Assembly (NCBI GenBank): GCA_015492645.1
Contig: WGER01000027.1
Coordinates: 11,396-75,395, forward strand
Source: Nitrospirota bacterium
GTDB taxonomy: Bacteria; Nitrospirota; Thermodesulfovibrionia; Thermodesulfovibrionales; JdFR-85
Direction: 5' to 3'
DNA: 64,000 nt
Under the pieces are notes generated by a model. It was not told the origin of the DNA. It did no database searches and worked only from the letters and a program-made list of their open reading frames with translations. The number at the start of each line of letters is the position of its first letter. Position 1 is the stretch's first letter. This document shows, in pieces, positions 1 through 64,000 of this stretch. The translations under genes were made by a program, and so were the position numbers.

Positions 1-801
1 TGTGCAACCCTTCACAACAACACCCTGGTCAGAAAGGGCCAGGTGGTGGCAGGCACAAGGGCCATACCTCTGGTGGTGAAGAAGGCAGTGGTGGAGGAGG
101 CGGTTCAGAGAGCCAGGAGTGAGGAGTCAGGAGTCAAGAGTCAGGAGTCAGGAGGGGCCCCCGAAAAATCGGAGATTTTTCGGGGCAGAGAAGTCGGAAG
201 TCAGAGGTCAGAGGGGGTGATAGAGGTAAGGCAGTTAAGAAGGCCAAGGGCTGGAGTGGTGATTACTGGCAACGAGGTCTATTATGGCCGGATCAAGGAT
301 GCCTTTGCCCCAATCATAAGGCAGAAGATTGAGGCATTCGGCGGTGAGATTGTGGGTCTTTATTTTGCCCCTGATGATGCAGGGTTTATTGAGGCCCGTC
401 TCAGGGAGTTGATTGAAGCAGGGGCAGACCTGCTGATCACCACAGGTGGTATGTCTGTTGACCCTGATGATGTCACAAGGTTTGCCATCAGGAACCTGGG
501 TGTAAGGGAGATGCACTATGGCTCTGCAGTGCTGCCCGGAGCAATGTTTTTGATTGCATACTTGAAGGAGTCAGAAGTCAGAAGGGGTCCCAGAAAAATC
601 AGAGATTTTTCTGGACTTATCCCGGTGCTCGGTATTCCTGCCTGCGGAATGTATCACAGGACCACGGTCTTTGACCTTGTCCTGCCAAGGATCCTTGCAG
701 GTGAGTACATAGACCGTGAGGCCCTTGCCGAGATGGGTCACGGTGGGTTATGCCTTAACTGTAGGGAATGTCGGTACCCTGTATGCCCCTTTGGGAAGTA
801 A
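1..801 (+). CDS. molybdopterin-binding (MogA/MoaB/MoeA-type fold) domain protein, 5' end outside window
   Basis: The frame is open from base 1 (CATLHNNTLVRKGQ...), so the ORF-track M at 43 is internal. ITTGGMSVDPDD motif of molybdopterin-binding domains. Cys-rich tail CLNCRECRYPVCPFGK. Carries two in-frame repeat insertions (115-216, 566-616). Confidence 0.6.
   Translation, partial: CATLHNNTLVRKGQVVAGTRAIPLVVKKAVVEEAVQRARSEESGVKSQESGGAPEKSEIFRGREVGSQRSEGVIEVRQLRRPRAGVVITGNEVYYGRIKDAFAPIIRQKIEAFGGEIVGLYFAPDDAGFIEARLRELIEAGADLLITTGGMSVDPDDVTRFAIRNLGVREMHYGSAVLPGAMFLIAYLKESEVRRGPRKIRDFSGLIPVLGIPACGMYHRTTVFDLVLPRILAGEYIDREALAEMGHGGLCLNCRECRYPVCPFGK
115..216 (+). repeat. in-frame composite repeat: six AGGAGTC-type heptamers, a 12-bp perfect hairpin, then four AGRRGTC heptamers
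   Basis: Heptamers aggagtg aggagtc aggagtc aagagtc aggagtc aggaggg at 115-156. Hairpin CCCCGAAAAATC-gga-GATTTTTCGGGG at 159-185. Heptamers agaagtc ggaagtc agaggtc agagggg at 189-216. Total 102 nt = 34 codons, translated as RSEESGVKSQESGGAPEKSEIFRGREVGSQRSEG. Confidence 0.85.
566..616 (+). repeat. second in-frame copy: three heptamers plus a hairpin
   Basis: Heptamers aggagtc agaagtc agaaggg at 566-586. Then CCAGAAAAATC-aga-GATTTTTCTGG at 590-614. Total 51 nt = 17 codons, translated as ESEVRRGPRKIRDFSG. Confidence 0.8.
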
Positions 802-902
802 AATGACCCTCTGAAATGGGTAGAAGTCATGGTGTCTTCTATAGCACTCTGTGTCGGGAATTCCCATAAAATCAAAGACTTTGCGGGCTGAAGTAACTCA
901 GA

Positions 903-926
903 CCTGAAAAATCAATTTTTTTCAGG
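903..926. repeat. intergenic member of the GAAAAATC hairpin family
   Basis: cctgaaaaatcaatttttttcagg, preceded by ctgaagtaactcagac, which resembles the heptamer motif. Confidence 0.5.
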
Positions 927-1022
927 CGTAAGCCCTACCGATTACTAATAGTTTCGCATGTAGGTCAGATGTCAATTTTGGGGCACCCTCATACCTACCA
1001 AATGATATAATAAGTAGCAGGT

Positions 1023-10494: not shown

Positions 10495-11145
10495 ATGGGT
10501 AACACGGTGCTGGACTTTATACTTCAGGCAGGCACGGTGGTAAAGGGAGTGATTCTGATCCTGCTCGGGTTTTCTGTCTTTTCCTGGGCGATCATCATCT
10601 ACAAGTGGAGGTACTTTGCAAGGGCCAAAAAGGAGAATGAGAGGTTTATCAGGTTCTTCCAGACTGGCAGGGACCCCAAGGCCCTCCTGGTGACCACAAG
10701 GGCGTTGGGGATCAGTCCCCTGGCGAACCTCTTCAGGTCTGTTTACAATGAAGACAGAAGAGACAGGACTGAACTCCGGAGGACCATACGGAGATATCTC
10801 GCCCTTGAAGAGGCGAAACTCCTCCGCTACCTCAACTTCCTTGCAACCACAGGGGCCACCACCCCCTTTATCGGACTGTTTGGTACCGTCTGGGGGATAA
10901 TGAACGCATTCAGAGGGATAGGGGCCGCTGGTTCTGCTGCCCTGGCAGTGGTCGCCCCTGGTATAGCAGAGGCACTCATCACCACTGCATTCGGACTTGC
11001 TGCAGCAATACCTGCAGTGATCGGATACAACTACTTCCTGAGTATGGCAAAGAGGATGATAATACTCACAGAGGACTTTGCCGAGGAACTGGAGGATTAC
11101 CTGAGCAGGACCGGAGAACCCCGGGAGTCAGAAGTCCGGACTTGA
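10495..11145 (+). CDS. MotA/TolQ/ExbB proton-channel family protein
   Basis: Three TM helices with the conserved TTGATTPFIGLFGTVWGI and APGIAEALITTAFGL segments. No TolR/ExbD partner follows. The last 8 codons come from the heptamer repeat. Confidence 0.8.
   Translation: MGNTVLDFILQAGTVVKGVILILLGFSVFSWAIIIYKWRYFARAKKENERFIRFFQTGRDPKALLVTTRALGISPLANLFRSVYNEDRRDRTELRRTIRRYLALEEAKLLRYLNFLATTGATTPFIGLFGTVWGIMNAFRGIGAAGSAALAVVAPGIAEALITTAFGLAAAIPAVIGYNYFLSMAKRMIILTEDFAEELEDYLSRTGEPRESEVRT
11123..11136 (+). repeat. two heptamer units (gggagtc agaagtc) forming the TolQ-like C-terminus
   Basis: The same gagtcagaagtc string as at 568-579. Translated ESEV in both genes. Confidence 0.6.
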
Positions 11146-11148
11146 GAG

Positions 11149-11964
11149 ATGGACCTCGATTTCCTCTTCGAAAGGAGGTCTCTTTTTATCATTGCAGGTC
11201 CCTGTGTAATAGAATCAGAGGCCGTTATGGATGAGACAGCCGCCTTTCTGAAGGAGATCGCGCTGAGGTTTGACCTGCCACTGATATTCAAATCCTCATA
11301 TGACAAGGCGAACCGTTCATCCATCAGTTCATACAGGGGACCCGGTATCCAGAAGGGTCTCCAGATTTTGGCAGAACTGAGGCAGAGGTATGGATTGCCC
11401 GTTCTCACAGACATCCACTCCCCTGAGGAGGCAGCAGTAGCCGCCGAGGTGGTGGATATCCTCCAGGTGCCCGCCTTCCTCTGTCGACAGACCGATATTA
11501 TCATTGCCGCCTCTGAAACAGGTCTGCCTGTGAATATCAAAAAGGGTCAGTTTCTGGCCCCATGGGATGTGAAAAACGTGATTGAGAAGTTCACCTCCAC
11601 AGGCAACCACCGTCTGATCATAACAGAGAGAGGGACCACCTTTGGCTACAACAATCTGGTTGTTGACTTCAGGGCATTCCCCATCCTGAGGTCCTTTGGC
11701 TATCCCGTGGTCTTCGATGTGACTCACAGTCTCCAACTGCCCGGAGGGCTGGGCAGGGCCTCAGGAGGCCAGAGGGAATTTGCCCACCCTCTGGCAAGGG
11801 CCGCAGTTGCCGCTGGTGTGGATGGGCTTTTTATGGAGGTTCATCCTGACCCTGACAGGGCCCTCTGCGACGGACCCAACATGATACCACTCGGCCAACT
11901 GCCAGGGCTGTTTGAAACCGTCAGAGAGATAGACAATCTCCTCAGGCAGGGAGGTTCCCTGTGA
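11149..11964 (+). CDS. kdsA: 2-dehydro-3-deoxyphosphooctonate aldolase (KDO-8-P synthase)
   Basis: IAGPCVIES, FKSSYDKANRSS, DVTHSLQLPG. Confidence 0.93.
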   Translation: MDLDFLFERRSLFIIAGPCVIESEAVMDETAAFLKEIALRFDLPLIFKSSYDKANRSSISSYRGPGIQKGLQILAELRQRYGLPVLTDIHSPEEAAVAAEVVDILQVPAFLCRQTDIIIAASETGLPVNIKKGQFLAPWDVKNVIEKFTSTGNHRLIITERGTTFGYNNLVVDFRAFPILRSFGYPVVFDVTHSLQLPGGLGRASGGQREFAHPLARAAVAAGVDGLFMEVHPDPDRALCDGPNMIPLGQLPGLFETVREIDNLLRQGGSL

Positions 11965-24258: not shown

Positions 24259-24340
24259 TCGGTGAAGCGGCAACTCGGTGAAGGGGTAAAGTCGGTGAAG
24301 AGGTGAAGGGGTGAAGGGGTAAAGAGGTGAAGGGGTGAAG
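24259..24340 (+). repeat. tandem 8-nt repeat array (about ten units, consensus NNGGTGAA), left arm of the cassette
   Basis: tcggtgaa gcggcaac tcggtgaa ggggtaaa (g) tcggtgaa gaggtgaa ggggtgaa ggggtaaa gaggtgaa ggggtgaa. Supplies the SD and GTG start of the next ORF. Confidence 0.9.
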
Positions 24341-24709
24341 AAAGGATATCAAAGTTTTAAGGAATTGAAGGTATGGCAGGAAGCCAGGACACTTGCAGTG
24401 AGGATATATAAGATTACTTCTTCAGGTGCATTATCAAGAGACTTTGGCTTTAGAGACCAGATTCGACGTGCAGCAATATCTATTCCTTCTAATATTGCCG
24501 AAGGATATGAAAGAGGAACTGATAAAGAGTTTATTCGTTATATCATGATAGCAAAAGGCTCCATTGCAGAATTAAGGACGCAATTGGAAATAGCAAAGGA
24601 AATAGATTATCTGGATTCACAAATATACGATGAACTGGAAAATCTTTGTAACAAAATAGGTGCAATGCTAACGAAATTGATCAGAGCAAGGAGTGCCAAT
24701 AATGTCTGA
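24335..24709 (+). CDS. four-helix-bundle protein (23S rRNA intervening-sequence protein / Avd-like family)
   Basis: 124 aa. N-terminus FKELKVWQEARTLAVRIYKIT and later NIAEGYERGTDKEFIRYIMIAKGSIAELRTQLEIA match my recollection of the PF05635-type family. GTG start at 24335 inside the repeat. Confidence 0.75.
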   Translation: MKKGYQSFKELKVWQEARTLAVRIYKITSSGALSRDFGFRDQIRRAAISIPSNIAEGYERGTDKEFIRYIMIAKGSIAELRTQLEIAKEIDYLDSQIYDELENLCNKIGAMLTKLIRARSANNV

Positions 24710-26618
24710 TGTAAATACAAAATTTACCGATTCACCCATTAACCGATCAACCACTTCACCATTATATATCTTCTTCTCAGGCAAAGGCGGAGTGGGAAAG
24801 ACCACTATGGCCTGTGCAACGGCCATCTACCACGGTATTCAAGGCAAAAGGACACTTATTGTCTCAACCGACCCCGCCTCTAATCTATCGGATGTATTTG
24901 AACAGCAGATTGGCCATAAGGTGGTAAAAATAAATGGTGTGGAAAACCTCTTTGCCATGGAGATTGACCCTGATGAGGCCACCCGTGAATACAAGGAACG
25001 GATTATTGCCCCTTTCAGGGAAGTGATGCCCGAGGATGTGATAGCCTCCATTGATGAACAGTTAAGCGGCCCCTGCACCACTGAGATGGCAGCCTTTGAC
25101 CGATTTATTGACTTCATGGAGACCGATGATTACGACATTATAGTATTTGACACTGCTCCCACAGGGCACACCATCAGGCTTCTGGAACTGCCTGTTGACT
25201 GGTCACGGCACATTGAGGAGGCATCAAAGGGCACGGGGCAGACCTGTCTTGGCCCTGTGGAGACCATACAGGGCTCTAAGGAACGGTATGACCGTGCAAC
25301 AGCACTGCTTAAGGATCCTCAAAAGACGAGGTTTATATTCGTCATGCGTCCTGATGAGTTGTCTTTATACGAGACACTCAGGGCATCAAAGGAACTTGAA
25401 AGCATAGGGATAAAAAAAGGCGAGATTATCATAAACGGCATCCTGCCGGCGGAGGTCTGTGAGGTAGAGTTTTTCAGGAAGAAATACCACGCCCAGCAGA
25501 GGGTCATAAAAGAGGCAGAAGAGATCTTTGCTGATATTCCCAGGAGATATATGTTACTAAGGGATTCTGAAGTAAAAGGGATTGATAACCTTAAGTCACT
25601 GGCAGTGGAGTTGTTTGGCGGTGAAGCGGTGAAGGAGTTAATCGGTGAAGCGGAAAAAGAGTCCACCACTTCACCACTTCACCGAGTCACCTCTTCACCG
25701 TCCTCCCGCTTCACCTATTCACCTCTTCACCGAATGACCGCTTCACCGCTTTCGCTTTTTTTGCCAGTTAACACTGGAACAAGGGCTGTTTTCTTCACTG
25801 GAAAGGGCGGGGTTGGAAAGACCACCATATCCTGCATCACTTCATTATTTACTGCAAAGAAAGGTCATAAGAGCCTTCTTGTCACCACAGACCCTGCCGC
25901 ACATATCGGTGAGGTGCTGGATGTTAAGATCGGCACTGAACCAGTAGAGGTGACCGAAAACCTTTTTGCAGTGATGGTTGACCAGGAAGAGGCGTTTAAG
26001 GAGTACAAGGAGCGGATACTCAATGAGGCAAGGGGCAAATACTCAGAGGAGATGCTTCGGGCAATGGAGGAGGAACTGAACTCCCCATGCACTGAGGAAA
26101 TGGCAGCCTTTGACAGGTTTATTCAGTTTATAGAGTCACGGGATTACGATGTAATAGTATTTGATACCGCACCAACAGGGCATACACTGAGGCTTCTGAG
26201 CCTTCCCTTTGATTATGCAAGGCAGGTGGAGATGATGGTCTCAGGAGCCGGGGCTGAAAAGGCAAAGGAAGATACGGAAAACCGTTTCAAAGAGATAATC
26301 AACCTCCTTAAAGACACTAAAAGGACGACCTTCTGCCTTGTCTTATATCCCGAATCCACACCCATTGAGGAGTCCTATCGTGCCATGCTTGACCTTAAAG
26401 ATGCAGGAATTGAGACGCAACTGGTAGTGGCAAACATGATTATTCCAGAGGAGGTCTGCGTTAATGACTTCTTCCGTAACAGAAGGGCCATGCAGTTAAA
26501 ATACCTTGAGGAGATAAAAAAGAGATTTGGACTTCCAGTTCTTGAATTTCCTCTGATGGAGGATGAGATAAGGGGAATGGAAATGCTAGAAAGGGCCCTC
26601 TCATATCTCGTTGAATGA
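24702..26618 (+). CDS. arsA: arsenite-transporting ATPase ArsA (A1-linker-A2)
   Basis: Two P-loops GKGGVGKTT, two DTAPTGHT signatures, and As(III)-ligand Cys contexts (SGPCTTEMAAFD, GQTCLGP, NSPCTEEMAAFD). The N-terminal extension and the linker are repeat-derived. Confidence 0.93.
   Translation: MSDVNTKFTDSPINRSTTSPLYIFFSGKGGVGKTTMACATAIYHGIQGKRTLIVSTDPASNLSDVFEQQIGHKVVKINGVENLFAMEIDPDEATREYKERIIAPFREVMPEDVIASIDEQLSGPCTTEMAAFDRFIDFMETDDYDIIVFDTAPTGHTIRLLELPVDWSRHIEEASKGTGQTCLGPVETIQGSKERYDRATALLKDPQKTRFIFVMRPDELSLYETLRASKELESIGIKKGEIIINGILPAEVCEVEFFRKKYHAQQRVIKEAEEIFADIPRRYMLLRDSEVKGIDNLKSLAVELFGGEAVKELIGEAEKESTTSPLHRVTSSPSSRFTYSPLHRMTASPLSLFLPVNTGTRAVFFTGKGGVGKTTISCITSLFTAKKGHKSLLVTTDPAAHIGEVLDVKIGTEPVEVTENLFAVMVDQEEAFKEYKERILNEARGKYSEEMLRAMEEELNSPCTEEMAAFDRFIQFIESRDYDVIVFDTAPTGHTLRLLSLPFDYARQVEMMVSGAGAEKAKEDTENRFKEIINLLKDTKRTTFCLVLYPESTPIEESYRAMLDLKDAGIETQLVVANMIIPEEVCVNDFFRNRRAMQLKYLEEIKKRFGLPVLEFPLMEDEIRGMEMLERALSYLVE
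24723..24761 (+). repeat. right arm of the cassette (inverted copy of 24260-24300), translated as the ArsA N-terminal extension
   Basis: The reverse complement tggtgaagtggttgatcggttaatgggtgaatcggtaaa aligns along its length with cggtgaagcggcaactcggtgaaggggtaaagtcggtgaag. Confidence 0.75.
25617..25754 (+). repeat. gene-less inverted octamer array translated as the ArsA A1-A2 linker
   Basis: Left arm, 4-5 GGTGAAG-type units (25617-25653). Loop aaaaagagtcc. Right arm, eleven ACCNCTTC units (25665-25754). Total 138 nt = 46 codons, with an 8-aa periodic peptide TTSPLHRV TSSPSSRF TYSPLHRM TASPLSLF. Confidence 0.88.
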
Positions 26619-32552: not shown

Positions 32553-33926
32553 ATGGCTCACGAGGCAGTAACAGAGGGCACAGGACAGGTGGTGATGGAT
32601 TCAACATTCTGGGTGGCAACAGCGATCTTTCTTGTCTCCTATGCAATCATAGTCTCTGAGAAGGTTCACAAGACGGTTGTTGCAATAGTTGGTGCCTCCC
32701 TAATGCTCATTTTAAAGATACTGGAGCAGCAAGAGGCATTCCATGTGGAGGAACTGGGGGTGGACTGGAATGTTATATTCCTTCTCATAGGGATGATGAC
32801 GATAATAAACATCCTTAAAGAGACAGGATTCTTTGAATACGTTGCTATAAAGAGCGCCAAACTGGGCAGGGGAGAACCGATAAATATACTGTTGATACTG
32901 TTTGTGGTTACCGCTGTGCTTAGTGCCCTCCTCGACAATGTCACCACTGTGTTACTCATAGTCCCAGTGACCTTTCTCATCTGTGACGCCCTTGAGGTGG
33001 ATCCCATCCCCTTTCTCATTATGCAGGTAATGGCCTCAAATATAGGCGGTACGGCCACTTTAATAGGTGATCCTCCAAACATCATGATTGCCTCAAAGGC
33101 GAAACTGAACTTTATGGATTTCATCTATCACCTCACCCCGGTGGTGGTGATTATAATGCTGGTGATGCTTGCGATAATGAAGGTCTTCTTTGGGAGGAGG
33201 TTGAAAACAAGAGAGGAACTGAAGGCAAGGATCATGCAGATGAACGAAAGGGAGGCGATAAAGGACCCTGTGCTTCTGAAGAAGTCTCTCTTTGTGCTTG
33301 GTGTGGTCCTTACAGGGTTTGTCCTGCACGGTGCCCTCCATTATGAACCTGCCACAATAGCACTCTTTGGTGCAGGGTTATTGCTGCTTCTTTCAAAGAC
33401 ACATGATCCCCATCACTACCTTGCTGAGATAGAATGGCCAACCATTTTCTTTTTTATTGGCCTCTTCATAATAGTGGGTGGTGTAGTGAAGGTTGGTCTA
33501 ATCAGGTGGATGTCAGTAAAGATGCTCGATCTGACAGAGGGCAACCTCCTGGCCACCAGCATGGTCATCATGTGGTTTTCTGCAGTCGCCTCTGCCATTG
33601 TTGATAACATTCCCTATGTGGCAACCATGAACCCCTTGGTAATAGACATGGCCCGTCAACTCTGGCCCCATGAGTCTGGATTGTCCCTTCTTCAACACCC
33701 TGAACTCATGCCAGTATGGTGGTCCCTCGCCCTTGGTGCGTGTCTTGGAGGAAACGGCTCACCTATAGGTGCCTCTGCAAATGTTATTGTGGTGGGAATG
33801 GCAGAGAGGGCAGGTCATAGAATCACCTTTGTGAGGTTTCTGGCCTATGGTGTGCCGATCACCATTCTTACGGTATTTATATCAATGGTATATGTATGGT
33901 TGAGGTATTATGTTTTGAACCTTTAA
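32553..33926 (+). CDS. ArsB/NhaD-superfamily (SLC13/CitMHS-like) anion permease
   Basis: 457-aa multi-TM protein with the conserved GGTATLIGDPPNIMI and GGNGSPIGASANV hairpin-loop motifs of this superfamily. Confidence 0.75.
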   Translation: MAHEAVTEGTGQVVMDSTFWVATAIFLVSYAIIVSEKVHKTVVAIVGASLMLILKILEQQEAFHVEELGVDWNVIFLLIGMMTIINILKETGFFEYVAIKSAKLGRGEPINILLILFVVTAVLSALLDNVTTVLLIVPVTFLICDALEVDPIPFLIMQVMASNIGGTATLIGDPPNIMIASKAKLNFMDFIYHLTPVVVIIMLVMLAIMKVFFGRRLKTREELKARIMQMNEREAIKDPVLLKKSLFVLGVVLTGFVLHGALHYEPATIALFGAGLLLLLSKTHDPHHYLAEIEWPTIFFFIGLFIIVGGVVKVGLIRWMSVKMLDLTEGNLLATSMVIMWFSAVASAIVDNIPYVATMNPLVIDMARQLWPHESGLSLLQHPELMPVWWSLALGACLGGNGSPIGASANVIVVGMAERAGHRITFVRFLAYGVPITILTVFISMVYVWLRYYVLNL

Positions 33927-34122
33927 AGGGTTTCTCACTCCCGGCCGCCTGGATTTGCCGATACGGTTAAGGGTGGCGGGCGTAGATTTGCCCGGGCAGA
34001 GCCCTCAACCCCACAAAATCTTTTATTTTATGGGACCCCATGCCACCTTCCAGAGTGTTTGATTGAAAGTCTAACGTCAATCTACGGGAAAGTCAACTGA
34101 CAAGTTCAATGAAAGGCTAATA

Positions 34123-34141: not shown

Positions 34142-35386
34142 ATGAAGTATATTGTGATAATAGGTGATGGAATGGCTGACAGACCTCTGAAGGAGTTAGG
34201 GGGAAAGACCCCACTTCAGGTTGCCTTTACCCCCAATATGGATAAGATTGCAAAGAGGGGGGAGTTGGGCCTTGTGAGGACCATACCAGAGGAGATGTCT
34301 GCCGGCTCTGATGTTGCCAATCTCAGTATCCTTGGTTATGACCCGAGGGTTTATTACACAGGCAGGGCCCCCTTAGAAGCGGCTGCTATGGGGGTGGAAC
34401 TTGCATCTGATGACGTGGCATACAGGTGTAATCTCGTTACCCTCAGGTATAACAAGGAACGGACAAGAGCGATATTGGAGGACTACAGTGCAGGTCATAT
34501 CAGCACAGAGGAGGCAAGGCAGTTAATCCAGGCCCTCAATGAGTCCCTTGCCACAGATGAGATAAGATTTTACCCGGGCATAAGTTACAGACACCTGATG
34601 CTCTGGAAGGGGGGACAGATTGAGGTCGAGTGTATACCACCCCATGACATCATAGGAAAGGAGATAACGGAGTATCTGCCCTGTGGGAGGGGAGAAGAGG
34701 TCCTCAGAGGGCTGATGGAGGCATCTGTGGAGATCTTAGAGTCACATCCAGTAAATAGAAAGAGACTGCAGGAGGGTAAGCCGCCTGCCAATAGTATCTG
34801 GCTCTGGGGACAGGGCCGCAGGCCATCAATGCCTTCTTTCAAGGAGAGGTATGGTCTGTCTGGTGCCCTGGTGAGTGCTGTGGACCTGACCAAGGGGCTC
34901 GGGGTGTGCCTGGGATTGGAGATACTGAATGTCCCAGGAGTGACAGGATACATAGACACCAACTATCTGGGCAAGGCGGAGTACTCACTCAAGGCACTTG
35001 AGAGGCATGACTTTGTCTACATCCATATAGAGGCCCCTGATGAAGCAGGACACAGCGGGGATCCCAAGATAAAGATAAAGGCGATAGAAGACATCGACGC
35101 CCTGGTGGTTGGTACAGTACTGAGGGGCGCTAAGGCATTTGATCGATTCCGGGTCCTCCTGATGCCTGACCATGCCACACCAATTGAGGTGAGGACCCAT
35201 ACAAAAGAACCTGTACCCTTTGTAATCTATGACAGTAGTGAAGACAGGAGCAACCCCGTTGATGGGTTCAGCGAGGCCATCAAAGAACTTGAAGACATCA
35301 CCGTCTTTGAACAGGGATACAAACTGATGGAGTATTTTCTCAAAAGAACAGATACCAAAGGGTTATTCAGGGAGGGTGAAGCCTGA
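34142..35386 (+). CDS. cofactor-independent phosphoglycerate mutase family protein (ApgM-like; possible non-canonical homoserine kinase)
   Basis: [20 protein letters not shown] and MPDHATP metal-site motifs of the alkaline-phosphatase-superfamily ApgM group. Abuts aspartate kinase (TGATG overlap). Confidence 0.8.
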
Positions 35387-49381: not shown

Positions 49382-49503
49382 CTCGGATTGTCTTGTCCAT
49401 ATAACTCCTTACCTGACCATCAAACCGTCATGGACCTCATAAATTATAAAGGTTTTTATGACAAAATTCAAATCAATGAACTACTCTGTAAATTGCCTGT
49501 TGT

Positions 49504-49537
49504 CCTTCGCCTATCGCCTCTTGCCTCTTTGCCTCTG
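49504..49537. repeat. short tandem 7-8-nt repeat (tcgccta tcgcctc ttgcctc tttgcctc)
   Basis: Read directly from the sequence. Lies in the intergenic region upstream of reverse gyrase. Confidence 0.6.
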
Positions 49538-49600: not shown

Positions 49601-52600
49601 ATGATTCCCATGCTTTACAAAGGGCTCTGCAGCGTGTGTGAGGGAGACCTCTCGACTCAGGAAGTTGAAGAAGGCACTTGCCAGAGGACAGGAATACATC
49701 TCTGTTTCAGGCCTGAAGACAGACTCTTGGAGGAGTTTGAGGAATTTTTTAGCAGGGCCACAGGCAATCCACTTCGTCAGTTACAGAGGTTCTGGAGCAG
49801 GAGGGTCTTTTCAGGAGAGAGTTTCACCGCAGTAGCCCCACCAGGTGTTGGCAAGACCACCTTCGGTATCCTGATGGCTCTCTTTATGGCAACAAGGGGT
49901 AAGAGTGCCTATATACTGCTACCCACCACACTTCTGGTAAGGCAGACAGTGGAAAATATGGGGCTCTATCTGGAGAGGCTTAACCTCAGGGCAGGATTCA
50001 ATGAAGAAGGCAGGATAACCATCTGTTTTTACCCGCTCCAGAAGGGCCAGAAAAAGGAGGCCTTCCTGGAGATGCTCTCCTCACAGCGGTATCAGATCCT
50101 TGTAACCACCTCACAGTACCTCGCCCGCAATTTCTCTGTCCTGAAGGAGAAGGTCTTCCAGTTCATCTTTGTGGATGATGTGGACTCCGTGCTGAAGGGC
50201 TCAAGGAATGTAGAAAAGATACTCCATCTGCTCGGTCTCAGAAAGACAAAGGAGGGATACAGCAACCGATCTGGTGGGGTCCTCATGGTCTCCACAGCCA
50301 CTGCCAGGGCGGGCAGGAAACTGGCTCTCTTGAAAGAGGCCCTCGGGCTTGATGTGGGCAGTTCTAACATTACACTCAGAAATATTGAAGACATACTCTG
50401 TACAGACAGGTCCATGAATACCCTCAAAAAGATCCTGACCATAATGGGACCAGGAGGATTAATCTATACCAGGACCAGACAGGAGGCAGAGGAACTGCTT
50501 CAATCTCTCGGAAGTGAATTCAGGATAGGGCTCGTCACCTCTGAAACAAAGGAGGATTATGATGCCTTTGTGAATGGGGATATCGACTATCTCGTGGGGA
50601 CCTCATCTTATTATGGTTCCTTGGTAAGGGGGATAGACCTGCCTGAAAGGGTCCGTTTCTGTGTATTCTGGGGTGCACCTGTGTTCACTGTGAGAGTAAC
50701 ATCCCTTGATACCCTTCCGGAGGGGTTGGTGAGGCTCATAGGTGGGGCTTACAGGGAGAGGGAAGAGGTGAGGGATCTGCTCCTGCAGTTGAAGGGTAGA
50801 AGGAAGGAAGAGGCCCTTTCAAGGTTGAGGCAACTATTGAGGGAACTGCTCAAAGAGGCCCCTCCATCATCTGACATCATTCTGAGAGAGGCGGAGGTGA
50901 TACTGCCTGATATAAGGACATACATACAGGGCTCGGGACGGACCTGCCGCCTCTTCAGAGGCGGGCTAACAAAGGGGGCTTCCTTCCTGATGGAAGATGA
51001 TGAAGATGTGCTTCAAGCCTTTGTCCAGAGGGGCAGATTCTATGACATAGAGTTCAAGATCTTCCATGAGGTCGATTTTAAAAGACTGAGAGAGGATCTG
51101 GAGACCTCCAGAAGTCCTCTTAAAGAAACTGCTCAGGATCTGATACAGCCTACTCTCTTTGTGGTAGAAAGCCCCACAAAGGCGTTCCAGATCTCCCGTT
51201 TCTTTGGACGGCCAAGTGTGAAGGTCCTGGGAGAAGGACCTGACAGGTTGCTGATATACGAGGTGGCAGCACCAGGCAGGGTCTTGCTCATAACCGCCTG
51301 TATAGGCCACCTCTGTGATCTCACAACCGACGAGGCCTACTATGGGGTGAGAGTGGATGGGACCTTTCTGCCTGTATACACATCAATAAAGAGGTGCCTG
51401 CAGTGTAACTACCAGTTCACAGAACCCCGTCCTTTTTGTCCAAAGTGTCACGGGCAGCAGATATCTGACAGCCTTCACCGGATCAAACTTCTGCAGAGGC
51501 TGGCACACCAGGCCGGTCACATTATAGTGGGTACAGACCCTGATACTGAGGGAGAAAAGATCGCCTGGGACCTGAGGAATCTGCTCGCAGGCTGTGGGGT
51601 GGTAGAGAGGGCAGAATTCCACGAGGTGACCCCCAGGGCAGTGATGGAGGCGCTTCAGGATCTGAGACAGATAAGTGAACCCCTGGTCAAGGCACAGATG
51701 CTCAGACGGATAGAGGACAGATGGATCGGGTTCTCCCTCAGCCATATCCTCTGGCACCACTTCCAAGAGGGGAATCTGTCGGCAGGCAGGGCACAGACAC
51801 CGGTGCTCGGCTGGATAATAGACAATGCAGAGGCCCAGAAGAGAAAGAACCCCGCCCTGTACATAGAGGAATATGACCTCCTTCTGAAGGAGGAATTACA
51901 ACCATCAGAGATCGCTGAAGGGGAGACCACCATAGAGGTCGAGAGGATAGAGTCCACTCTGACCGAGGTGAACCCACCACCCCCCTATACCACAGAGACG
52001 ATGCTATCAGATGCGAATCTGATACTGAGACTCGGTGCCCAGGAGGCGATGAAGGTGACACAGAACCTGTTTGAATCAGGTCTGATCACCTATCACAGGA
52101 CTGACTCTACTGCGGTCAGTCAGACAGGGCTGAAGGTTGCCCAGGATTACCTCCGTTCAGACTTTCATCCGCGGAGATATGCCTCTGAAGGTGCCCATGA
52201 GTGTATAAGACCCACGCGACCCATCCCGAAGGAGACCCTTCTGAGGCTTGTGGATGAGGGTGTTATACCCGTGGAGGGGTTTACCTGGAAGGAGTATGCC
52301 CTTTATGACCTGGTGTTCAGGAGGTTCATGGCGAGCCAGTGTCCACCCTGTATGACCCAGAGGGAGAGGTACCGTATAAAGGTTTCAGGGAAGGAGTTTC
52401 TGGAAGACAGGGTGGTAGAGGCAAAGGGCAGGGCAGTGGATCTCTACCGATGGTTCATAAGGGTCAAGGTCCCCCTGCCTGAGGGTATACACACTGTAAG
52501 GGGCCGGAGGCTCTGGATACCAGAGGCATACCCCTTTACTGAATCTGATATCGTAAGACAGATGAAACAGAAAGGGATCGGGAGACCATCCACCTATGCC

Positions 52601-61473: not shown

Positions 61474-64000
61474 TAGACCTGCTTGAAGAAAATGGCTACC
61501 GAAGGTATAGGTACCAGATTGATGCCGTCAGACAGGCACTTTCCATAATTGAGCGGAACAACGGTGTCATCATTGCCGATGTCGTTGGCCTTGGAAAGAC
61601 GGTGATTGCCTGTGCCATAGCCTTTGAACTTAAAAAGAGGGGGATTGTGATTGCACCACCTGGGATTGTTGGTAATGAGGCAGGCACTGAGGGCTGGAGG
61701 AGGTATCTTGAGGAGTTTCACCTGACGAAACTGGGCTGGAAGGCATTCTCTCTGGGAAAACTTGAAACAGTGGCCGAGTTTGTAGCAAGGGCAAAGGACA
61801 TAGAGGTGGTGATTGTTGATGAGGCACACAGGTTCCGTAACCAGGACACCAAGGACTACGAACTCCTGAAAAACATCTGCAGGGGCAGGACTGTCATACT
61901 CCTTACTGCCACCCCCTTCAACAACCGCCCTTCAGACATCTTTTCTCTCCTGAAACTCTTTATCACACCCAAAAAATCCACCATAACCCTTACGGATGAC
62001 CTTGAATCTAAATTTACTGAGTTCAGGAGCATCTTTGACAAACTCTCCTATATCAAGCGATATGCAAACTCCCCAGACCCAAAGAAGGCACAGAGGGCGG
62101 TCTCCTTTTACAGGGCACTCTTTGGAAAGTCAGAGATAAACCTCTCAGAGGTAAAAGACCGTGCCCACTACATGGCAAGGCAGATAAAACATACCATTGA
62201 GCCTGTAACCATCAGGCGTAACAGGCTTGATCTGCAGGGAAATCCCTATTACCGGAATGAGGTCAGGGAACTCTCAAGGGTGGAAGACCCTGTTGAGTGG
62301 TTTTATGAACTGACAAAGGAGCAGTCAGTGTTTTATGACCGTGTGATCAATGAATACTTTGCCCTCCCGGAGGATGGAGGGCTCTTTAAGGGCGCCATTT
62401 ACAGACCCTTTATCTACAAAGTCGGCATAGACGCCTTTGATGACCTGGCCAGGGAGGAAAACTTTCAGTATATCCAGCAGTTCAACCTTTACGATTTCAT
62501 GAGAAGGCTTCTTGTTAAGAGATTTGAGAGTTCCTTTGGTTCCTTCCGTCAGAGCCTTGAAAACTTCAGGGACATAACCAGCACTGTACTCGGATTTATA
62601 AGGAAAACAGGTAGATACATCCTTGACAGGCAATTACTTATGAGGATTTACACAGAAGACATGGAGACCATTGAAGATGAACTCAGGCAATACGCAGAAA
62701 GGATAAAAAAGGGCGAATATCCCAAACACCACGAAGTCTATGAGGTTGACAAATTCAAAGACCCTGAGAGGTTCCTTTCTGATATTGAATCTGACAGGGC
62801 CCTTTTTGAGAAGATTCTTGAGGAACTGGAAGGCCTTGCTCTGGTAAAACACGATCCCAAGGCAGAATGCCTGATAAAGAATCTCAAATTTCAAATCTCA
62901 AATCTTAAATCTCCAAAGCCAAAGGCTGTCATCTTCTCAGAATACCTTGACACGGTCCGTTACCTTGAGCCCCTCCTGCAGGATGCATTCAGCGGTAGGG
63001 TCTTTGTGGTAAAAGGCGATCTTACAAGGACAAAGACCCGTGAGATTCTCGCCAACTTTGATGCTTCCTATCCAGAGGACCAGCAGGCCGATGACTACGA
63101 CGTCCTCCTTACCACTGACCGAATCTCTGAGGGGTTCAATCTCAACCGTGCAGGCATAGTAATAAACTATGATATCCCATGGAACCCCGTCAGGGTCATC
63201 CAGAGGGTGGGCAGGATCAACCGTATCGGCAGGAAGGTCTTTGACAGCCTTTACATAGTAAACTTCTTTCCCACTGAAAAGGGGGCAGACCTTGTCCGGT
63301 CCCGTGAGATAGCCTCAAACAAGATGTTTCTCATCCACAATGCCCTTGGAGAGGATTCAAAGATATTTGACATAGACGAAGAACCCACACCCTCAGGTCT
63401 TTACAACAGGGTCCAGCAAAACCCTGACACTATGGAACAGGAGAGTTTCTATACAAGGGTCCTGAAGGAGTTTGAAAGGATAAAGTCTGAGCATCCTGAG
63501 GTTGTTAACAGGCTGAAAGACTTTCCACCAAGGGTAAAGGTGGCAAAACCCTCCGACAGGGACGAACTCTTTGTCGTTATCAAAAAGGGAAGGCTCTTTG
63601 TCTATTACAAGGACTACTCTGGCACAGAGATAGAACTCAAGGACCTTGAGGACATCCTTGACAGGGTCAGACCCTCTGACGCCTCCCTCAGGCCTCTCCC
63701 CCTCAGCAAGCGGTTCTGGGATGAGTATGAGATGATAAAGAACTTTAAAGAGACAGGCAGGCTGACCTTAACAGAGCAGAGCATAAAACAAAAGGCAATC
63801 AACAACCTCAAGGCCATGCTCTCTGCGGAGGCAATGGAAGAACTTATACCCCTTAAAGGGTTTCTCAGAACACTCCTTGAAGACATTCTTGACTACGGTA
63901 GCCTTTCTGACTATACCCTGAGAAGGATTGCAAACATAGATTTACAAAAGAACGGCCTTGAGGAGATAAGGGCACTCAAAAGAGAACTTGGTGAGGATTA
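61407..64000 (+). CDS. SNF2-family helicase portion (no own start codon; 3' end outside window)
   Basis: Not in the ORF track because it has no stop in the window. I checked by hand that the frame with codons starting at 61407 is open at the junction (61407-61500) and at 63960-64000. The lack of any + strand ORF after 61473 in the track fits a single open frame in between. Motif I ADVVGLGKT, motif II VVIVDEAHRFRN, motif III LLTATPFNN, motif V/VI LLTTDRISEGFNL...NYDIPWNPVRVIQRVGRINRIG. Confidence 0.85.
62881..62915 (+). repeat. in-frame 7-nt tandem repeat inside the helicase gene
   Basis: tctcaaatt tcaaatc tcaaatc ttaaatc tccaaag, translated NLKFQISNLKSPK. Confidence 0.6.

Follow-up and report, generated by a model that had tools for sequence, protein, structure and literature searches.

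How does a conserved enzyme gene come to carry runs of repeat DNA that are translated in full, and what kind of DNA are they? The question is raised by the first 801 nucleotides of a 64-kb stretch of Nitrospirota DNA (contig WGER01000027.1, positions 11,396 to 75,395 of the forward strand; hereafter the window), which hold most of a molybdopterin-binding protein gene. Within this gene, window positions 105–216 consist of a heptamer array, a perfect hairpin with a 12-bp stem and a 3-nt loop, and a second heptamer array (site 1), and the whole stretch is translated in frame. A second array-plus-hairpin lies at 563–620 of the same open reading frame (ORF; site 2). We read these inserts, with a probability of about 0.6, as two kinds of repeat DNA in combination, mostly neutral or selfish and tolerated in permissive disordered loops, in which a slippage-prone array was later invaded by a dispersed palindromic repeat. 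A first-pass annotation of this DNA had described the arrays, the hairpin and the reading frame of site 1, and all of the listed sequence features are present; its placing of in-frame repeat DNA in a MoCF-domain gene is likewise borne out by the frame-1 ORF and by Pfam. Its description of site 1 stands, while site 2 had been overlooked. The features of the gene are as follows.

1–801, plus strand: molybdopterin-binding (MoCF_biosynth, PF00994) protein gene, 3′ two-thirds; the ORF is open at the window start, full product P0001, 399 aa
105–157, plus strand: left heptanucleotide array of site 1; unit AGGAGTC (= AGTCAGG), ~7 copies, ending in AGGAGGGG
152–190, plus strand: hairpin repeat copy 1; GGGGCC-CCCGAAAAATC-GGA-GATTTTTCGGGG-CAGAG, stem 159–170/174–185
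186–216, plus strand: right heptamer array of site 1; CAGAG AAGTCGG AAGTCAG AGGTCAG AGGGG, missing along with the hairpin from the orthologue P0004
563–589, plus strand: short heptamer array of site 2; AGGAGTC AGAAGTC AGAAGGGGTC, Tandem Repeats Finder (TRF) 569–584, pattern match 566–579
582–620, plus strand: hairpin repeat copy 2; GGGGTC-CCAGAAAAATC-AGA-GATTTTTCTGG, stem 590–600/604–614 (inverted-repeat search)

At site 1, TRF finds period 7 at 105–154 (7.0 copies, 83% matches, score 70) for the left array, and letters 115–156 read AGGAGTG AGGAGTC AGGAGTC AAGAGTC AGGAGTC AGGAGGG, with AGGAG five times within. The site continues through the hairpin as AGGAGTG AGGAGTC AGGAGTC AAGAGTC AGGAGTC AGGAGGGGCC-CCCGAAAAATC-GGA-GATTTTTCGGGG-CAGAG AAGTCGG AAGTCAG AGGTCAG AGGGG, the right array having period 7 at 189–212 (TRF, 3.4 copies). 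The arms of copy 1 (159–170 and 174–185) are 12 nt long, 100% complementary and 3 nt apart in the inverted-repeat search; folded as DNA, the hairpin reaches −12.3 kcal/mol with z = −4.6 on either strand, and 0 of 200 shuffles were as good. The frame-1 translation of the ORF reads ...RSEESGVKSQESGGAPEKSEIFRGREVGSQRSEGVIEV... here, the array-hairpin-array itself encoding RSEESGVKSQESGGAPEKSEIFRGREVGSQRSEG. Site 2 reads AGGAGTC AGAAGTC AGAAGGGGTC-CCAGAAAAATC-AGA-GATTTTTCTGG. Its hairpin is unlike copy 1 in stem pair and loop and is translated in another frame, as GPRKIRDFSG. A covariance model of 39 positions built from hairpin family members (R1) gives copy 1 58.9 bits on the plus strand (E = 4.9e-11) and 26.4 bits on the minus strand, and copy 2 49.4 bits on the plus strand (E = 6.4e-9) and far less on the minus strand. 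In the window, the two-unit heptamer pattern AGGAGTCAGGAGTC with at most one mismatch has 5 matches against 0.07 expected, and the 31-nt hairpin pattern GGGGNCCCNGAAAAATCNGAGATTTTTCNGG has 2 against 0.00 expected. Chance does not account for array and hairpin.

That the inserts arose in assembly or sequencing is scarcely credible. Repeats do break assemblies, and the gene sits on a 2.1-kb contig in the NCBI metagenome-assembled genome (MAG), but two further public assemblies (L087, L088), possibly from the same sample, are identical to the window, the frame is intact, and orthologous hairpins with compensatory differences come from other samples (L086, a Logan run; L075, a GTDB MAG). Population polymorphism is not readable from L087 and L088 because both are identical to the window. 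Neither stem is followed by a T tail and neither hairpin is reported by a terminator scan, so that an intrinsic terminator was rejected. A programmed −1 frameshift signal was also set aside: AGGAGTC is not slippery, and the conserved protein is read on in frame 0 through both hairpins. A regular spacing, as in CRISPR, is absent.

The window ORF is 100% identical to P0001, window residue k being P0001 residue 133 + k; Pfam MoCF_biosynth begins at residue 85 of the window translation, and the NCBIfam matches of the product are to the molybdenum cofactor synthesis domain only. Its nearest relatives are annotated as ‘molybdopterin-binding proteins’ of Nitrospirota / Thermodesulfovibrionales MAGs (358–448 aa). 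These orthologues are single ORFs, which speaks against a fusion of two genes by the array, and inserts of 20–34 low-complexity codons bear no resemblance to an intein or intron. In an alignment of 22 relatives, site 1, which comes after ...VVKKxVVEEAV, and site 2, which comes after ...PGAMFLVAY, are the sole internal hypervariable regions, the N-terminal leader ahead of the conserved core being variable as well. Among 89 orthologues, defined as the matches in which each of the four conserved anchors was located, the anchor-to-anchor distance ranges from 23 to 68 residues at site 1 and from 13 to 48 residues at site 2. The hairpin-encoded peptide is present in three of them: P0001 (both sites), P0002 (site 1) and P0010 (site 2). 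In the AlphaFold2 model of P0001 the mean predicted local distance difference test score (pLDDT) is 77, falling below 50 at residues 177–201 and 327–336, while the flanks exceed 90. These low-scoring stretches fall within the inserts (P0001 172–205 and 321–338), and the adjoining secondary structure is well predicted. Both inserts are therefore predicted to lie in disordered loops, site 1 in a linker ahead of the MoCF domain and site 2 in a loop inside it. The 36-residue insert peptide gave no match among 1.84 billion representative proteins; a 42-column three-frame profile of in-frame copies gave 5 candidates and 1 match, a 37-aa ORF of Dethiosulfatarculus, the word index used in both searches being ill-suited to such short motifs.

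The DNA of several orthologues, recovered and aligned with the window, contains empty, array-only and array-plus-hairpin versions of these sites. P0110 has no repeats at either site, and the anchor motifs of site 1 are 27 residues apart there, compared with 56 in the window; no peptide homologous to the insert is found in the repeat-less orthologues P0110, P0018 and P0022, in keeping with the initial view that repeat DNA had entered this gene. P0004 keeps the same left array at site 1 (...AGGAGTC AAGAGTG AAGAGTC AGGAGGGG) and then runs directly into the conserved GVIEV codons, with no hairpin; relative to it, the window has exactly 60 nt extra, which is the sum of the hairpin and the right array (alignment A3, whose gap takes in the right-array repeat). 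P0002 has the site 1 hairpin in common with the window, but only degenerate heptamers adjoin it. At site 2, P0004 reads ...GTCAGAGGG|CAGAAGTC..., where L075, an orthologue closely resembling P0010, reads ...GTCAGAGGGGG[TCCCCGAAAAATCAGAGATTTTTTGGGG]CAGAG..., the bracketed part being the hairpin piece. As P0004 keeps the array without a hairpin, the array is the older feature, predating the hairpin at this site, and the hairpin is a discrete piece of ~30 nt inserted at a G-run of the array; because of the G-runs, its exact ends are not definable.

Two separable modules are thus at hand where the first-pass annotation had proposed one 102-nt element, and comparison with P0004 and P0110 likewise yields no clean insertion of 34 residues. 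Beyond this gene the modules also occur apart. The hairpin model gave a single, marginal match across 551 kb of (AGTCAGR)n-carrying metagenome DNA, and only 5 of 83 hairpins have an array of period 6–9 within 90 nt (8 of 415 control positions). The association of hairpin with array is restricted to some Thermodesulfovibrionales.

The array has an unusual coding logic. On the purine-rich (sense) strand, AGGAGTC and AGAAGTC contain no stop trinucleotide in any frame, and since 7 and 3 have no common factor every frame of the array yields a single 7-residue peptide, SGVRSQE. On the opposite strand, GACTCCT has TGA in all three frames, so that an array within a gene is possible in the sense orientation only. 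Among the long simple-sequence repeats of prokaryotes, those with 7-nt units are the most frequent; they are proposed to have arisen by polymerase slippage, and stop codons on one strand restrict where they sit in ORFs (PMC4679880). Arrays of (AGTCAGR)3 or longer occur at no fewer than 120 metagenome loci (at least L089–L208) on diverse contigs. Of the 129 arrays at the metagenome loci listed, 15 lie inside long open frames, 5 just before a long ORF and 109 in neither position, and 21 have an inverted partner array nearby, the pair enclosing a spacer. Many of those listed adjoin other heptamer arrays, namely TAGTCAG, AATTCAG and GATAACT (= TAACTGA), as in L189. Some run straight into a start codon (‘AGTCAGAatg’), and one lies within an ORF with BioA-like motifs, identified by eye (L101). 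The proposal that the element survives only where it keeps the frame does not fit these distributions, most arrays and many hairpins being intergenic or at gene ends.

A unit of 7 nt, not a multiple of 3, in 6–7 tandem copies would also suit a contingency (phase-variation) locus, where one heptamer more or fewer puts the C-terminal MoCF domain out of frame and turns it off. We regard this as highly improbable. The units are imperfect (83% matches), which lowers slippage; the three assemblies are identical, though they are perhaps not independent populations; the frames of orthologues are intact at many array lengths; and the gene encodes a conserved housekeeping-type enzyme of free-living anaerobes.

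Several other short-period arrays lie elsewhere in the window. Octamer arrays, (GGTGAAGC)n followed by an inverted (GCTTCACC-type) array, occupy 25618–25751 in frame within ORF 24693–26618, where they form the linker of an ArsA/GET3-like ATPase, joining its two repeated P-loop halves; a related intergenic octamer array is found ~1.3 kb upstream, at 24259–24340. AATCTCA is repeated five times at 62880–62913, in frame as NLKFQISNLKSPKP, in a long helicase-looking ORF that runs off the window end. An intergenic heptamer array (49493–49536, TTGCCTC-type, ~6 copies) lies ~65 nt upstream of a 1084-aa ORF starting at 49601. Two AGTCAGR units at 11123–11145 form the C-terminal tail (ESEVRT*) of a MotA/TolQ/ExbB-like membrane-protein ORF, with the next gene starting at 11149.

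The hairpin belongs to a dispersed family. When the pattern CCNRAAAAATCNGAGATTTTTYNGG was scanned against a species-representative genome collection, 84 loci (L001–L084) matched, and the family consensus is a ~30-nt polar palindromic repeat, GGGG-YC-CCCRAAAAATC-RGA-GATTTTTYGGGG. The initial expectation that this would not prove a sole occurrence is confirmed by the second copy in the same gene and by related copies in other genes and genomes. The 5′ flank, which the pattern left free, is GGGG-Y-C, with G at position −4 in 68 of 87 cases. GGA or AGA forms the loop, which is oriented in step with the flank (39 canonical, ~6 flipped). The free N-N position of the stem forms a Watson–Crick pair, of four types in all, in 66 of the 78 distinct contexts and thus covaries; at the R-Y pair, G·T occurs 27 times and A·C 4 times. 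Together, the polarity of flank and loop, the maintained stem and the excess of G·T over A·C indicate that the hairpin has a fixed polarity and matters as a single strand. With the GGA loop, its core is stop-free in all six frames.

The hosts include Nitrospirota, Dehalococcoidia, Chloroflexota, Dormiibacterota, Clostridia, a Nautiliales MAG (Campylobacterota), a Desulfobacterota isolate and a few archaea, and the core is near-identical among them. In Nitrospirota MAGs, in-frame copies occur in either orientation in Mfd (two), peptide deformylase, a CCA-adding-type nucleotidyltransferase (by reading of the ORF) and a response-regulator linker; other copies sit 2–14 residues ahead of stop codons or just upstream of start codons. 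Within 16 kb, one Nitrospirota MAG carries 7 copies in different genes, and in Dormiibacterota the hairpin fills stop/start gene junctions within operons. No real match was found when plasmids, phages and IMG/VR viral contigs were searched with the hairpin, no Rfam family falls on it at gathering score in 15 loci or at E ≤ 5 in window positions 1–1000, and a literature search with the hairpin sequence gave no match. It is possible that the family is an undescribed one that spans phyla.

Some pattern matches were kept apart from this family. L048 and its counterpart L084 are gyrB-type Toprim-motif coding sequence and were judged probably unrelated or chance matches. An Oscillospiraceae family (L014, L022, L026, L037, L038, L062, L067, L069, L077, L081), in which a similar hairpin adjoins TAGTGTGTTA and lies next to Mob_Pre relaxase genes, was set aside as probably unrelated to the main family; its repeat is probably the origin-of-transfer (oriT) region of a mobilisable element, the TAGTGTGTTA region bearing what we take to be a resemblance to a nic site. 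A Lachnospiraceae family, also set aside as probably unrelated, has flanks both ways round relative to the hairpin loop, flip and flop (L007, L031, L040, L050–L052, L057 and L074 as against L016, L049 and L076); a tie between it and phage genes is a guess.

Conservation of the hairpin between orthologues could suit a different view of its role. The site 1 hairpins of the window and P0002 are identical at 24 of 27 positions, one difference being a compensatory C-G to T-A change at a pair where window copy 2 has A-T, whereas identity at four-fold degenerate sites of the gene is 0.46 (n = 123; 54% differ). Because the encoded peptide sits in a disordered, non-conserved loop, constraint or homogenisation most likely acts on the nucleic acid. 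The insert could then be a functional cis-element of the mRNA, in which AGGAG heptamers, bound by the anti-Shine–Dalgarno sequence, and the hairpin slow or pause ribosomes and so aid co-translational folding, or in which the in-frame GTG at 217 serves as an internal start. Site 1 is placed exactly in the linker that joins the two domains, with helix 161–172 before it and strand 207–210 after it; both hairpin copies are in sense orientation; the hairpin is much better conserved than synonymous sites, with a compensatory change; the preponderance of G·T over A·C is consistent with an RNA stem; and arrays of the same unit end directly at the start codon in several metagenome loci. We nonetheless consider such a role unlikely. 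The hairpin is lacking in 86 of the 89 orthologues and most have neither AGGAG arrays nor hairpin; in several the loops are free of any insert, and in others they are occupied by unrelated repeats. Site 2 falls within the MoCF domain, at no domain boundary, the same hairpin is also found antisense in other genes and in intergenic DNA, and the hairpins are not terminator-like.

A purely local origin, with arrays made by slippage, a palindrome made by fold-back (template switching), two copies through intragenic conversion and nothing mobile, is a further rival reading. Both strong copies of the 64 kb are in one gene. Other orthologues have an array-palindrome-array layout with other palindromes at the orthologous loops: P0063 (L210) has (GGATGCA)3 – CCCCCCTT gat AAGGGGGG – (CATCAGA)n, and P0027 (L212) has AGGAGTC – a CCCCCTCGAGGGGG-centred palindrome – GGAGTC. 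Inverted octamer arrays occupy the same loops in P0026 (L209) and P0027, and in P0026 an octamer array is present in the N-terminal leader as well; within the window, the inverted octamer arrays of the ArsA-like ORF form a palindromic linker. A local origin predicts, however, that local sequence is copied, and instead the same core, polar flank and loop are found in unrelated genes and phyla, 7 copies in different genes lie within 16 kb of one MAG, and the two window copies differ in stem pair, loop and reading frame. Local generation of the whole structure therefore seems to us quite unlikely, a shade more so than a role in the mRNA.

The reading we prefer, a slippage-prone array later invaded by a dispersed repeat, has to be weighed against several of these same observations and some others. 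The 24/27 identity between orthologous hairpins could mean a function in this gene and not neutrality. Array-palindrome-array layouts recur in other orthologues with unrelated units and C-run/G-run palindromes, which hints at some local generating process. The strong hairpin copies in the window number just 2, both in the MoCF gene, which is unexpected for a freely dispersing element, and both are in sense orientation. The GGGG and CAGRG direct repeats that flank the hairpin look the same as array units, so that a target-site duplication is not definable, the array making flanking direct repeats automatic. Finally, no recurring transposase is present among the best 25 families from the 148 ORFs within 1.5 kb of hairpins; these families are housekeeping genes, plus the Mob_Pre and phage genes of the two Clostridia repeat families. 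Beyond the two strong copies, two weaker candidates are found in the window.

903–926, strand not assigned: possible decayed intergenic hairpin, CCTGAAAAATCAATTTTTTTCAGG, ~100 nt 3′ of the stop codon; R1 12 bits, E ~1.3; DNA fold −7.1 kcal/mol, z = −3.3; weak
34004–34042, minus strand: possible diverged intergenic family member, GGGGTCCCATAAAATAAAAGATTTTGTGGGG; R1 18.5 bits, E = 0.047; between ORFs ending at 33926 and starting at 34142

For a composite of array and invading repeat, the following course of events is proposed. The AGTCAGR array would grow and shrink through replication slippage, and the hairpin, as a member of a dispersed family, would enter the G-run at the array end as a discrete piece. 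A trans-acting factor would propagate or maintain the hairpin in single-stranded form, as DNA or possibly RNA, and in a fixed polarity, with a spread akin to that of repetitive extragenic palindromic (REP) elements or of non-autonomous elements of the type of MITEs (transposable elements that are miniature and have inverted repeats). That a trans-acting enzyme handles it as single-stranded DNA is a conjecture drawn from its polarity, its G·T bias and its REP-like behaviour. The array, in turn, may render a coding site unusually tolerant of insertions whose length is not a multiple of 3: since 7 = 1 (mod 3) and all frames of the array give one peptide, adding or dropping one or two units would restore the frame and leave the peptide the same. 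Such frame buffering would account for the arrays around those hairpins of this lineage that lie in genes. For the protein, the most likely outcome is that surface loops become longer, with nearly neutral consequences.

A bolder version, which we offer tentatively and do not favour, is that the hairpin is an undescribed miniature element that is actively spreading and crossing phyla, inserts beside G-runs and serves as a single-strand substrate of a conserved trans-acting enzyme, while heptamer arrays act as ‘frame buffers’ that let insertions of other than 3n nucleotides lengthen protein loops. If true, recurrent array-palindrome-array layouts would be a general route by which repeat DNA builds linkers and loops in conserved enzymes. 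It is strange that a 30-nt element should be near-identical across phyla when no vector is visible, and the hairpin may be the more important lead, as it implies either a mobile element of broad host range that has escaped recognition or a conserved factor of the cell by which it is recognised. On the composite reading itself, in-frame ‘selfish DNA in genes’, known chiefly from Rickettsia, would have a counterpart in anaerobic, free-living Nitrospirota, and a single gene family that preserves empty, array-only and array-plus-hairpin sites shows how arrays and a palindrome jointly lengthen loops. Annotators should be able to recognise inserts of this sort, which make orthologues longer and more variable in length and interrupt assemblies.

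Four kinds of known repeat DNA bear comparison with these inserts. REP elements, including the REPIN-RAYT system with its REP-associated tyrosine transposase (Y1 HUH), and IS200/IS605-derived palindromes are likewise imperfect palindromes of 20–40 nt with fixed polarity and locally many copies (here 7 in 16 kb of one MAG, though 2 strong ones in the 64-kb window), and in their stem, as here, pairs covary and G·T is accepted on one strand, which fits recognition of a single strand. In contrast, REPs are extragenic by definition, carry a 5′ GTAG and are normally species-specific, whereas the present hairpin has a GGGG-YC flank, many copies inside ORFs and a core nearly identical across phyla. 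No RAYT/Y1 gene was found, the scan covering the best 25 families from the 148 ORFs within 1.5 kb of hairpins. MITEs that make in-frame fusions (ERIC, BOX, Correia/NEMIS, Nezha) are also small and non-autonomous, with inverted-repeat ends, and can be read in frame (PMC10969869). At ~30 nt, however, the hairpin is under the usual MITE size and its inverted repeats are the entire element; no parent insertion sequence of the hairpin was found.

The first-pass annotation had drawn its parallels from Rickettsia palindromic elements (RPEs) and heptamer repeats of the short tandemly repeated repetitive (STRR) type, and these are the right ones. Long 7-nt simple-sequence repeats (cyanobacterial STRR; TAACTGA of Beggiatoaceae, Cyanobacteria and Bacteroidetes) are tandem heptamers, mostly intergenic and sometimes directly upstream of starts; stop codons in all frames bar one orientation from ORFs, and occasional in-frame copies lie at the protein periphery (PMC4679880). 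The left array shares with them a head-to-tail length well beyond chance (7.0 copies; 5 matches against 0.07 expected). It differs in its unit, AGTCAGR instead of TAACTGA, in its Thermodesulfovibrionales host and in its setting, the arrays here lying in internal loops of a conserved enzyme and being invaded by a palindrome. The units of STRR1–3, we presume, differ from AGTCAGR as well. RPEs are a family of palindromic hairpin repeats found in frame in unrelated housekeeping genes, where they encode an extra peptide where the fold permits (PMC10969869). The present hairpin resembles them both in its stable palindrome, a 12-bp perfect stem with z = −4.6, and in its in-frame insertion in several unrelated genes, namely those for MoCF (two), Mfd (two), peptide deformylase, the CCA-adding-type enzyme and the response-regulator linker. 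Size and host set it apart, RPEs being ~100–150 bp and confined to Rickettsia, in contrast to a ~30-nt core in free-living Nitrospirota and other phyla; moreover, the hairpin occurs in both orientations and all frames, is common at gene ends and in intergenic DNA, and in this gene is nested in a heptamer array. We class the inserts of this gene as in-frame palindromic repeats of an RPE-like kind joined to simple-sequence repeats with heptanucleotide units.

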